Source: Eledone cirrhosa | Taxonomy: Eukaryota | Direction of reading: 5' to 3' | Length of the DNA: 64,000 bases | Assembly: GCA_964016885.1 (NCBI GenBank) | Contig: OZ024746.1 | Location: 51,832,001 to 51,896,000 of the forward strand | In this document: one piece after another, positions 6,721 through 32,854 of the stretch | Position numbering within the stretch: position 1 is the first letter of the stretch | Layout of the letters: each line of letters starts with the position of its first letter | Program-made: the position numbers and the translations under genes | The notes under the pieces: model-generated | Told to the model about the DNA's origin: nothing | What the model saw: the letters and a program-made list of their open reading frames with translations, nothing else | Database searches by the model: none

Positions 6721-6826
6721 TATATATATATATATATATATATATATATATATATATATATATATATATATATATATATATATATATATAATAATAATAA
6801 TAATAATAATAATAATAATAATAATG

Positions 6827-9800
6827 ATTTCATTTATTAGCCACAAGGGCCGACATGTAGAGGACAATACAAAGACAGGGACAGTGGGGGTTTACAATAA
6901 GGTCGAGTAAAAGTGCACAATGGCAAGACTAATTTAACAATGAAAATATAAAAATATAAAATAAATTATGCATAAATATAACAAAATAAATTCCCCGATA
7001 GGGGGTGGACGACCCTGGGGTGATTCGGGTACGCCACCAATCCTGAACCACCCTGCGCTTCTAGGGCACCCAGGGAGAGCACCCCTCTCCTCAAGTTAGC
7101 TAGCCTATAGGCGCATGGTCAGAGTAGGCCCATTCACACGAGCCATTCTCGCCACATTCACCCACCTTTTAGCAAATGTACTGAGGGGCAGCACTTCTCT
7201 CTCCACCCTCACTTTCCTTTCCAGGTGAAACTTGAAGAAGTTGAGGAATTGGCCGAAGAGAAAAGTGTCTGTCTTTATTCCTTTCAACCTGGTCCACCAT
7301 ATAATCTCTTTTCCAACTGCCACCAGACAGAAGAACATTTCCTGCTCTTCCTGACCTAAGGAAGGCGGTGGATCGATCTTCACTATGGACTCGGCCGATA
7401 GCCGGATTCGTTCTACACGCGACAGTAGCTGTTCGACATAACTCCACAAGTCAGTAATGCACGGACATTGGACAAGTGCGTGCAGAACGGTTTCGTCGTT
7501 CTGTGCGCATCTTGGGCAGGTCCGTCTGACAGCACTTCCGTGCCTGTAGAGTTTATTCCGAACCGGCAGTGCCCCCCGGTAGCACTGCCAAGCGAGGGAT
7601 TTCTGGAAATTGTCCATCGTCCCCGGCTCAAAAGTCCTCCGGTACAGACTGGTCAGTTCGACTTCGTCGAGGCCCAACGCTTCTCCGAGTGCGTCATCGC
7701 ACTTGTCCACCACTAATCCTCTATAGAACTCGAGAGTGGAAGTTACACTGATCACATTGTCCGCTTGGTAGAGGGCAGTGAGTGCCTGGCAACATTCCAG
7801 GTGCTAGTCACCCAGTCTCGGTCAAAGAAATGAGCTGCGGAAAGGCCCGTCTGAAAAACGGCGACCACACCTGTTCACCGTTGAGGCAGAATATCTGGAG
7901 ATGCCGCAGCCTCAACGCATGTCTGCGCATCATTAGCCACGGCATGCCCAGCCCTCCGCGTAGAGGGTGCTGGCAGCAGATGGACCGCCTCACCAACGGA
8001 ACTTGTCCCTTCCACAAGAATTTGAAGAGGAGCCGTTCCAACTTGACGAGGCGCGGACGGGGGCAAGGCACGACGGTCAGGCGGTAGTAGATGACGGACG
8101 CGATGTACGCATTCGCCACCTCCGCTCGACCCTTCAGTGATAGCTTCCTCCCAGCCCAATTTTTGGGTGAGGCTGGCTACTCTGCTCGTTACCTCGTCCC
8201 AATTCTTTTCCACCTGGAGGTCTGGTCCGAACCAAACCCCGAGCAACTTTACCGGTCCGTCCGTCCAGCGCCCCACGACGCTGTTGGACGGCATGGGCTT
8301 GCCTCTCCAGGTTCCGAGCTGCAAGCCCACCGACTTTTCCGCGTTAAGTTTGGCTCCTGTCAACCTTTCATATTCCTTCAATAAGGTGCCGACCACCTCG
8401 ATTTCTGAGGTGTTCGACACCATCACGGTGATGTCGTCCGCATAAGCCGATACCACCTTTCCACGTCCCGGTTCGAGCGGGATGCCCTGCAACAGCTCCA
8501 GCTTCCGCAGTAAAGGCTCGAGAGTCAATACGTACAGCAGGGAAGAGAGAGGGCACTCTTGACGGACCGATCAGGAGAGCCGAAATGGTTCCGAGAGGTG
8601 GCCATTAACCTTGACCACCGAGCGTGTGCCGCTGTGCATTGCAACGATCCAGCTTCTAAAGACAGGGCCGAAGCCAGCTGCTTTGAGGACAAACTCCAGA
8701 TACCGATGGTCGACCCTATCGAATGCTTTCGATTGATCTAAATTGATCAGTGCCCCACCGAAGCCAGGTTTACACCCTACCCTCTCTATGATGTATCGCA
8801 TGAGGTGGAGATTGTCGTGTATGAACCTGGCTGGGATTGCACAAGTTTGCGCCTCTCCAACCTTCGACGACAAGCGCCAATCTCTTTGCTAACACCTTGG
8901 CCAAAATCTTAAACTCTGTGTTGAGCAGAGTTATGGGCCTGAAGTTGTCTAATGTATCCCTCTTGTTCTCGTCTTTCCTTATCAGCGTCACCACTCCCCT
9001 GCTCACAGAACTGGGAATACTCCCATTCTGCTGCCAGTTGCAGTAGAGTACTTCGAGGAGTTCAGAGAACAAGTCTGGCATATTTACGTAAAGCTCGTAG
9101 GGCAGGCCATCCAAACCGAGTGACTTGCGCCTCATGCAGCCGACAAGGGCGTCCTGAATTTCAGCTGAAGTAATCGGCCTTTCGCAGCGCTCAGCGTCGA
9201 CCGTCGAGATGCGCGGCAAGCCGTCAAGGTAGGGACTGAAATCCGCTACTCTCTCTGACTCGCCACTCTCCCTGAACAACCGAACAAAGTGCTGGCGAAA
9301 GGCCTCACACATCTGCTTGGAATCGCTTATCTCCTGTCCGTCTCGGTCCGTCAAAGACCGAATTGTGGTTTTATTATCACGCTGCGCCTCCGCCACGTGT
9401 ACCCATCGAACAGCTTTAGTTCCCTCGTTTCTCAGCGCACGCACCTTAGCTCTGACAATGCAACCTTCGTGTTTGGCATTGAAGAAATGGTCTAATGCCA
9501 TTCTCGCCGCTAGCACGTCAGTTGCGATGCCACTACAAATAGCCTCGTCTAACTTATCTACCAGCTCCCCCTCCTTTCTATTTTTCTCTAACGCTAGTTC
9601 TTTGCTGAACTCTATCGAAGTTACTCTAATCTCTCTTTTGAGAGCCACCCACCATCTGTTGTTGATGATACCCCTGTCAACTTTTGCTTAACTAAATTGT
9701 TGACTCGGTCCCTGTAAGCCTTACGTGCCGGAAATGACATGTTCAGCTTCCAGTAACCCGGTCCTAACCTACGCGTTTTATTTAGGTCGACCGTACAGAT

Positions 9801-9896
9801 CACAAATTTGTGATCTGAATAGGCGACCGTTTTAAAAAGTGGACAGCCCACATTATTTCTATCTATTTTCCTAATGAAGATCCTGTCTATATACGA
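6827..9896 (-). pseudogene. 5'-truncated, frameshifted L1/Tx1-clade element (EN C-terminus, RT, CCHC)
   Basis: ORF pieces 9621-9896, 8770-9648, 8571-8873, 7875-8528 (YADD), 7808-8119 and 7105-7755 are collinear with the 1139-aa ORF2. 3' end is CCCTTGTGGCTAATAAA + (ATT)n. Confidence 0.92.
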
Positions 9897-10193
9897 TAAT
9901 AATAATAATAATAATAATAATAATAATAATAATAATAATAATAATAATGTTTTCTTTATTAACCACAAGGGTTCACATAAAGTAGACATTAAGGACAGTA
10001 CAGGACAATACAGGACGGTACAAATGGGCATTTCTGCGTGTAAAAAAAAACAGAGGTTGAAATAAAATAACAAAGAAAAATTCCCCAATAGGGGGGAGAC
10101 TTCCAAGGGACATTTGTGGAGAAAGCCCATTAAAAGACCACAGTGGCCCTGACCACCAGGGCAAGTGCCCTCTCCCAGTTTTCCACCTTTAAT

Positions 10194-31305: not shown

Positions 31306-32524
31306 ATATATGTATGCAGTTGGGTATTGGTAAATGTGTAGTCATTGTGATGAGGAGGGGTAGGTTGAGCAGAAGTAACGGGATCCAGATACCAACAGGT
31401 GAGATGATAAAGGAAATTGACTCTGAGGAAGGATACAAGTATTTGGGCGTTCTGGAGGCTGATGGCATAAAGAACAAAAAAATGAAGGAATTGTTAAGAA
31501 CTGAATACATTCGGAGAGTAAGGAGCGTATTGAAGTCACATCTGAACAGCAGAAATGCCATAAGCGCAGTAAATTCCCGAGCTGTGTCTATTATTAGGTA
31601 CAGTGCGGGAATTCTGAGATGGAATGTTGCTGAACAAAAAGAAATGGATAGGAAGACTAGGAAGCTATTGACTATCTACAACATGTTCCACAAGAGGAGT
31701 GATGTCGATAGACTCTACCTAAGGAGATCTGAGGGTGGAAGAGGTCTTATCAGCATAGAGGACTGTGTTCAGATGGAGAAAAACAACCTATACAAATACG
31801 TGACCTATAGTAAGGAGCCAATGCTCAGAGCTGTACTGAAGGAGGGGACAGTAGGCCAGGGGATACCCAAGGAGGAAATAACATCAAGGAGGAAGAGCAG
31901 CCTTAAGGGAAAATCCCTTCATAGTACCTTCTTTGAGAAAACTGAATTTAGAGATCCACAGACATGGAACTGGTTGAGAAGAGGAGACCTCAAAAAGGCT
32001 ACAGAAGGAATGCTAATGGCTGCACATTCTGAGAAATGGTATGAGCATAGGCCAGAGGCGGTGATGGAGAACGATCAGGTGAAGGTGCTGTGGGATTTTA
32101 GGATACAGACGGACAAAAAACTGGAACACAATAGACCTGACCTGGTGGTTGTGGACAAAGAAAAAAGATCGTGCCTGATTGTGGATGTGGCCTGCCCGTT
32201 CGACACGAGAGTGCAAGAGAAGGAGAGGGAGAAAATTAACCGATACCAGGACCTAAAGTGGGAGGTGAAAAGGATTTGGAACTGCCATGAAGTCAAAGTG
32301 ATCCCGATTGTCATAGGCGCACTGGGGACTATCTCCAAAGGTTTCCAGGGATGGTTAAAGAAAATCGGCCCCTTCACGCTTTTTGGAACGCTTCAAAAGG
32401 CATGCTTGCTTGGAACGGCAAGAACCCTCCGATACGTCCTGAATATCTGAGGCTGCAGGTAGTGGCTTGATATTCAATCCAACGGACTTTCCAGTTAACC
32501 AACATCAATGACTGAGATTCAAGG
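31306..32524 (+). pseudogene. Dong family A copy 4, 5'-truncated with 213-bp in-frame internal deletion
   Basis: Junction ATGGCTGC|ACATTCTGAG at 32023/32024 skips the sequence equivalent to 19483-19695. Confidence 0.92.
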
Positions 32525-32563
32525 AATAACAATAACAATAATAATAATAATAATAATAATAAT

Positions 32564-32740
32564 GTCTACTTTTGGCACAAGGCCAGCAATTACACAGTGT
32601 ATTACTGGTACTTTATTTTATCGACCCTATAAGGATGAAAGGCAAAGTTAACCTCGGCAGGATTTGAACTCAGAATGGCAAGGGCCGTAACTCTATGCGT
32701 CAAAGCATGGCGTCCGACCCTCTACCGATACTGCCAATCC
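32564..32740 (-). mobile_element. SINE family 1, near full length, with (ATT)n tail
   Basis: Minus strand GGATTGGCAGTATCGGTAGAG...CTGAGTTCAAATCCTGCCGAGG...GGCCTTGTGCCAAAAG + (ATT)n; AATAATAATAA on the other side. Confidence 0.8.
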
Positions 32741-32854
32741 AATAATAATAAGTTTCAGAACATCCCGTTAAGGGTGAAAGCAGCGATTCTTTGCTTAAAC
32801 TTTAATCTGTTATTTTAATATATATATATATATATATATATATATATATATAAT

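Follow-up and report, generated by a model that had tools for sequence, protein, structure and literature searches.

Elements of two endonuclease classes are known to share one repeated locus, as R1, which carries an apurinic endonuclease-like (APE) domain, and R2, which carries a restriction-enzyme-like (REL) endonuclease, both reside in the 28S rDNA. Long interspersed nuclear elements (LINEs) can also be specific for simple repeats. Dong elements have been reported to target (TAA)n in insects, molluscs and cnidarians (PMC7998251, PMC3812793). Among Tx1-group elements, Kibi is found in (TC)n, Koshi in (TTC)n and crocodilian Tx1 families in (TTCC)n/(TTTC)n (PMC4494074), and the choice of microsatellites by APE-type LINEs has been called not well understood (PMC3812793). 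In the silkworm, TRAS1 and SART1 insert into the (TTAGG)n repeat in opposite directions, T^A being the nick site of the TRAS1 endonuclease (PMC7265360). Here we describe a 26-kb array at positions 6790-32751 of a 64,000-nucleotide window from Eledone cirrhosa (positions 51,832,001-51,896,000 of contig OZ024746.1 in the 3.0-Gb chromosome-scale assembly GCA_964016885.1). In this array eight retroelement copies, two of Tx1 type, five of Dong/R4 type and one short interspersed nuclear element (SINE), are linked by (AAT)n tracts. We conclude that it is very probably a real pile-up in one (AAT)n microsatellite, in which the elements probably prime on opposite strands, leave repeat on most flanks and hit the site again.

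The first-pass annotation of the window had described eight consecutive insertions with (AAT)n junctions and without host DNA between them, and all eight elements and their tracts were indeed found (Tx1-A, Tx1-B, Dong-A and Dong-B are working names). The left edge, (AAT)12 (36 bp, 6790-6825), adjoins (TA)35 and lies on the 3' side of Tx1-B (6826-9897, minus strand), a 5'-truncated and broken Tx1-type LINE with fragments of reverse transcriptase (RT) and zf-RVT. The tract (AAT)17 (51 bp, 9898-9948) connects the 5' truncation point of Tx1-B with the 3' end of Tx1-A (9949-15855, minus), a full-length young Tx1-type LINE. The next tract, (AAT)18 (54 bp, 15856-15909), is flanked head-to-head by two 5' ends and is therefore the tail of neither neighbour. 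Dong-A1 (15910-20196, plus), whose 5' untranslated region (UTR) is truncated at an internal AAT and whose 1141-residue frame is open, is followed by AATAAC(AAT)16 (54 bp with one AAC unit, 20197-20250) and by the full-length Dong-A2 (20251-25099, plus), which has a 324-bp duplication in its 5' UTR and an open frame at 21600-25025. Beyond AATAACAATAAC(AAT)6 (30 bp, 25100-25129) lies Dong-B (25130-29100, plus), a member of a second Dong family with a truncated 5' UTR and a frame broken by stops. After (AAT)6 (18 bp, 29101-29118) come the 5'-truncated and broken Dong-A3 (29121-31249, plus), the tract (AAT)16 (48 bp, 31250-31297) and Dong-A4 (31306-32524, plus), which is truncated at its 5' end and lacks about 210 bp internally. 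The tract AATAACAATAAC(AAT)9 (39 bp, 32525-32563) stands tail-to-tail between Dong-A4 and the SINE (32564-32740, minus), on whose 5' side the right edge consists only of (AAT)3 plus AA (32741-32751). Host DNA is absent from between the elements: the A-rich stretch at 25130-25151 is the own 5' UTR of Dong-B, and eight bases 5' of Dong-A4 belong to no assigned element.

Dong-A1 and Dong-A2 are 99.84% identical, and A1, A2 and A4 are mutually 99.4-99.8% identical (A4 99.4-99.7% to A1/A2), with A3 at 97.6% to A1/A2. Relatives of Tx1-A share 97-100% identity with it, and those of Tx1-B 94-98% over longer stretches and 98-99% at the 3' ends. This spread of identities indicates several time layers of insertion, the order of which is unreadable from the array.

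The polarity of the array recurs throughout the assembly. A 21-mer from the 5' end of Tx1-A occurs 2323 times, with ATTATTATT directly upstream in 2163 cases (93%) and AATAATAAT in none, and the background rate of ATTATTATT directly upstream of a position is 1.5-2.7e-4. It is thus (ATT)3 that precedes most Tx1-A copies, rather than the mostly non-(ATT)n flanks that the first-pass annotation had named as the counter-case, and the proportion exceeds the threshold of more than 20% of flanks given for target preference in PMC4494074. Four of the exceptions were inspected; three are imperfect ATT tracts and the fourth is a truncated Dong joined head-to-head without a tract. At least two more Tx1 families start with ATT|G. 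For Dong-A, 657 5' ends were found, and (AAT)3 lies within 25 nt upstream in 339 of the 350 on the reverse strand, to which the flank count was restricted and where each site gives one match. The exact register is kept at only 273 of the 657 ends, and at three seemingly opposite sites among them an AAT tract does occur, farther upstream and with a short TTA insert after it. Truncated Dong-A copies adjoin the tract in 12 of 14 cases and have a short insert after it in the other two. The strict opposite polarity proposed for Tx1 and Dong agrees with these counts, which cover Tx1-A and Dong-A.

Several junctions deserve description in their own right. At L391, L392 and L395 the AAT tract at the Dong-A 5' junction is followed by a short (TTA)n insert in inverted orientation, which suggests that the 5' join involved snap-back or a template jump. 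At L202 and L284 a truncated Dong-A is joined head-to-head to Tx1-A with no tract between, reflecting either a deletion on insertion or the use of a single site by two different elements, one priming on each strand. An apparent long duplication at L112 turned out to be a 95-bp templated insert. Two more recurrent elements (L227, L243 and L297; L029 and L107) end at ATT tracts in the Tx1 polarity; they matched none of the five proteins tried and are possibly further non-autonomous riders.

The window also contains a natural control. Positions 1-690 (minus) are the 5' part of a young RTE-like LINE with 1440 candidate copies in the assembly, a label drawn from a weak match to the APE-RT proteins, and its 5' UTR holds an empty AAT tract at 354-388. 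Among 38 copies of this site that were scored, 28 are empty, nine are filled and one is broken off by another repeat (L390 was left unscored). The filled sites contain Dong-A on plus in three cases and Tx1 on minus in six, with both host flanks recovered in seven of the nine; L094 and L313 are also filled, and the polarity is obeyed in all 11 (L389 stands outside the filled totals). The comparison of empty with filled homologous sites shows that (AAT)n is the target and not merely a tail. One copy, L376, carries two Dong copies between intact host flanks and is a stack in the making. The outer tracts have a median of 20 repeat units at eight filled sites versus 11 at 26 empty ones (P=0.003; L383 and L385 were kept outside the unit count). 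Target-site duplications, visible where unique sequence borders the tract, measure 120 bp at L208, the ATT tract included, and about 27 bp at L389, a Tx1-A insertion. Dong tails start with AAC-interrupted units at 25 of 30 unrelated loci, and such units are absent from at least 26 of the 28 empty RTE tracts, which indicates that part of the tail arrives with the RNA and adds repeat.

These observations bear on the idea that the repeat is only a 3' tail and that the 5' tracts derive from the tails of neighbours or from microhomology joins without any targeting. All the elements do end in the repeat, and four of ten truncated Tx1-A copies have no 5' tract. The empty and filled RTE sites nevertheless refute this idea, and the duplications that contain the tract, the head-to-head tracts and the absence of opposite flanks among the 2323 Tx1-A ends point the same way, leaving it exceedingly improbable.

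Stacking is likewise a genome-wide property. At 150 tract junctions of young copies, the neighbour belongs to the same families in 95, of which 93 obey the polarity. A survey of six regions picked for clustered matches revealed arrays of up to 28.5 kb, the longest (C1:26.002-26.031 Mb) comprising a SINE and eight LINE copies. A rough calculation by hand (0.63^7, about 4%), based on a sample biased to young copies, leads us to expect runs of eight to be common among thousands of copies. The claim that several clades stack in one repeat is borne out by these arrays; the same arrays contradict the view that the array in the window is exceptional, or even unique. Could the array be an assembly join at microsatellites, or mainly a local tandem duplication? 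Dong-A1 and Dong-A2 are adjacent and nearly identical, A1 starts at an internal AAT, and this one step may be a local duplication. As an account of the whole, a join or duplication is highly unlikely, given that truncation points and identities (97.6-99.8%) differ among the copies, that the nascent stack at L376 lies between two intact host flanks, that similar arrays exist elsewhere, and that the tracts are 18-54 bp long within chromosome-scale contigs. Logan contigs and restriction-site-associated DNA (RAD) reads from four runs, placed on 28960-29260, are cut at the repeat and none spans the junction.

Other observations weigh against repeated insertion into a self-renewing target. By a hand tally, the ten truncated Tx1-A junctions lie at an ATT tract in four cases, partly so in two and not in four. 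The ATT|G register of full-length Tx1 is fixed, possibly because a few 5' units are borne on the RNA, which would inflate the 93%, and longer tracts are perhaps hit more often, which would inflate the contrast of 20 versus 11 units. Two of the 95 neighbours break the polarity, one a SINE on the other strand (L075) and one a tract-less Dong join. Finally, L377 lacks repeat on its 5' side, and regeneration is not universal. The proposal that each insertion regenerates target on both flanks thus stands for most insertions, with the extra units from Dong tails, and fails at L377.

The identity of the two kinds of LINE was established from their frames. In Tx1-A, ORF1 (frame 13648-15237) contains a CX2CX4HX4C knuckle read in the protein, with no Pfam match above the cut-off, and ORF2 (frame 10194-13652) contains APE, RT and CCHC regions, matched by Exo_endo_phos, RVT_1 and zf-RVT in Pfam. 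The two-ORF layout, the N-terminal APE, the RT, the C-terminal CCHC and the ORF1 zinc knuckle are those of the Tx1 clade (L1 group). The solved structure closest to ORF2 is that of human L1 ORF2, and the best named protein match of Tx1-A is 'Transposon TX1 149 kDa protein' at 32%. A 14-row RT tree without typed references, from which a length filter removed four of the seven intended ATT-family rows, places that protein on a long branch and does not separate Tx1 from L1. Tx1-A and Tx1-B, at 74% nucleotide identity, are two families. Tx1-A is not assigned to Kibi or Koshi, the target being (ATT)n and not (TC)n or (TTC)n.

Dong-A1 and Dong-A2 each encode one frame of 1141 residues with RT, CCHC, RHD and PD..D..K endonuclease motifs and no APE. 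This single ORF, the order of RT before CCHC/RHD/PD..D..K and the (TAA)n target are the features of the R4/Dong clade, and the solved structures closest to the Dong proteins are R2 proteins. At least 120 homologues were found, nearly all of them without a name. The grouping of Dong with APE elements in PMC3812793 is contradicted by these proteins, and both endonuclease types postulated for this repeat, APE in Tx1 and REL in Dong, were recognised. Dong-A and Dong-B proteins are 40% identical. Pfam gave no match to a Myb/SANT-like domain at the N-terminus of the Dong proteins, a domain whose published detection required HHpred (PMC7998251). Bombyx Dong has a 5' ribozyme like that of hepatitis delta virus (PMC3774820), whereas Rfam gave no such match in the 5' regions of Dong-A2 or of the truncated Dong-B. 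The 3'-end pattern of Dong-A has 4099 matches in the assembly. Position 25152 was discarded as the 5' end of Dong-B, since 26 of 30 matches continue into a longer UTR; in most copies this longer UTR holds a SINE 3'-end fragment (L122-L149).

The SINE follows the Tx1 polarity with far less stringency. Its head 21-mer has 80,951 exact matches in the assembly, satellite arrays included. On the reverse strand, (ATT)3 lies within 10 nt upstream in 2545 of 41,335 matches (6%) and (AAT)3 in 43, a ratio of 59:1. The Tx1 orientation attributed to the SINE from its minus-strand copy in the window is therefore matched genome-wide, whereas its description as a microsatellite-targeting member is not: with only 6% in tracts it is not AAT-specific and uses a short ATTAT motif instead. 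Exact target-site duplications of 11-21 bp were found in 17 of 29 complete copies, 16 of them beginning with ATTAT and 14 preceded by a pyrimidine. On the primer strand this motif reads 5'-ATAAT^R, which agrees with the Tx1-A nick TAAT^G at L389 and with T^A in (AAT)n, nick positions being uncertain by a few bases since RNA ends can pair with the target. The element is short, multi-copy and flanked by duplications, as expected of a SINE; A- and B-box-like motifs were read by eye only, and neither Rfam tRNA models nor ARAGORN matched a tRNA-derived head. In places the head has become a 45-bp tandem satellite (C1:1,767,388-1,768,440 and others).

We consider it likely that the SINE borrows the Tx1 enzyme. 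Two canonical SINE 3' ends agree with three Tx1 ends at 14-17 of the 24 terminal bases, versus 7-10 of 24 for Dong ends, and the terminal match beats at least 99.4% of internal positions. Against this, the SINE end in the window is three bases short and does not pass the anchored test (9-11 of 24), with a shuffle P of 0.007-0.085. Transport by another, unseen LINE with a similar 3' end would fit the restriction of the similarity to about 24 terminal bases at 58-71%, the very different target stringency of SINE and Tx1, and a comparison that covered five LINE families only. The shared polarity, the apparent nick motif in common with the Tx1-A insertion at L389 and the position of the best SINE/Tx1 match exactly at the terminus speak for Tx1, and a different carrier seems unlikely to us.

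Tx1 relatives within the same window occupy a different repeat. Those at 44350-46536 and at 35323-36054 are embedded in (AGAT)n/(TATC)n, in stacks that span 44240-46674 and 35175-36100. The two sites belong to a single host stretch that is present in inverted copies (34612-36105 and 44295-47157, 72-75% alike). One ATCT family is young, with 40 of 40 scored matches 100% identical and open full-length copies at L181, L182 and L190; its copies, truncated ones too, have ATCT on both flanks and duplications of 9-10 and 89 bp. In the RT tree the two ATCT families are sisters (support 100/99). The ATCT-family endonuclease is 56-63% identical to ATT-family endonucleases, and 20 positions separate five ATT from two ATCT sequences; since these positions also track descent, none is credited with setting specificity. 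Elsewhere in the window, an 86-bp satellite with units about 92% identical extends over some 14 kb (49956-64000) and runs off the window end.

How could two enzymes arrive at opposite polarities? The sense strand of an inserted Tx1-type LINE carries (ATT)n, and that of a Dong-type LINE carries (AAT)n. By target-primed reverse transcription, elements whose sense strand ends in (ATT)n would prime on the AAT strand, and the ATT strand would serve those that end in (AAT)n. The Tx1 APE would then nick the AAT-reading strand, probably at 5'-TAAT^R-3', and the Myb-like domain and REL endonuclease of Dong would nick the ATT-reading strand. In either case the repeat-bearing 3' end of the RNA would pair with the freed primer, and repeat on both flanks would leave the same site open to the next insertion. 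The SINE, on the Tx1 enzyme, would accept the short ATTAT motif and land mostly outside tracts.

A different explanation is that the two enzymes are largely indifferent to strand when they nick the repeat and that pairing between RNA tail and primer sets the polarity and much of the length preference. The partly RNA-templated Dong tails (25 of 30) favour it, as does the contrast between SINE and Tx1-A, which seemingly share a nick motif and yet lie in tracts in 6% and 93% of cases, as would fit a role of tail length; for SART1 and R1, too, it has been proposed that repeat-like RNA anneals to the target (PMC7265360). The pyrimidine before the SINE duplications (14 of 17), on the other hand, is not part of the paired region and implicates the enzyme, endonuclease swaps shifted specificity between SART1 and TRAS1 (PMC7265360), and the 20 residues diagnostic of ATT versus ATCT reside in the endonuclease, though these follow descent too. 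Because of the pyrimidine preference and the published swaps, we lean towards the view that polarity is determined mainly by nick specificity, with tail pairing helping; polarity set chiefly by pairing is possible but appears doubtful.

We also put forward, as a speculative extension, that these elements may act together as a target-making guild. The tails of SINE and LINEs would seed and lengthen (AAT)n for both endonuclease classes, so that retrotransposition would be a main source of the AAT and GATA microsatellites of the genome, and a switch between ATT and ATCT would have taken place among sister Tx1 families with about 60% endonuclease identity, the AT^R nick being retained.

The locus differs from the R1/R2 case in that those elements use different sites in a gene and have no self-made target, whereas here both classes use one triplet repeat. 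The Dong copies resemble Dong of Bombyx mori, DongAg, DongBg and Darwinula Dong1/2 of the R4 clade in their single frame, RT, CCHC, REL motifs and (TAA)n target; unlike in known Dong, two families only 40% identical share the site and are stacked with Tx1. Similarly, the Tx1 families are APE-type Tx1-group LINEs specific for a microsatellite, as are Kibi, Koshi and the crocodilian families (PMC4494074), with different targets, (ATT)n here and (ATCT)n in the sister families. TRAS1 and SART1 also occupy one simple repeat in opposite directions (PMC7265360), but both are APE-type and telomeric, unlike the APE and REL elements on dispersed microsatellites here. The crocodilian SINEU has been inferred to ride Tx1-Mar through a shared target preference, with tandem insertions (PMC4494074); the present SINE, in contrast, shows a tRNA-like head to the eye, has a 3' end in common with its presumed carrier and is far less target-strict than that carrier. 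The annotation of Octopus vulgaris counts recently active Dong-R4 and L1-Tx1 families, and neither 'target' nor 'nested' occurs in its available text (PMC13282606); the available parts of PMC4640811, PMC4758252 and PMC8869645 contain nothing specific to this pattern. In a limited literature, where repeat unit plus Tx1 is not directly queryable and Repbase is not covered, we came across no account of a Tx1 element that targets (ATT)n, nor of APE and REL elements sharing it. The system is a variant of known microsatellite targeting with close precedents, and not a new kind of system.

Its value lies in the contrasts that young, intact families provide: two enzyme classes on opposite strands of one triplet, ATT versus ATCT sisters, and a strict LINE set beside a relaxed SINE. 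If the guild model is true, the ATT/ATCT sisters are a ready pair for finding the determinant of microsatellite specificity. The finding would also name the likely carrier of a SINE present in tens of thousands of copies, and would account for some of the clustering of LINEs in genomes of this kind.

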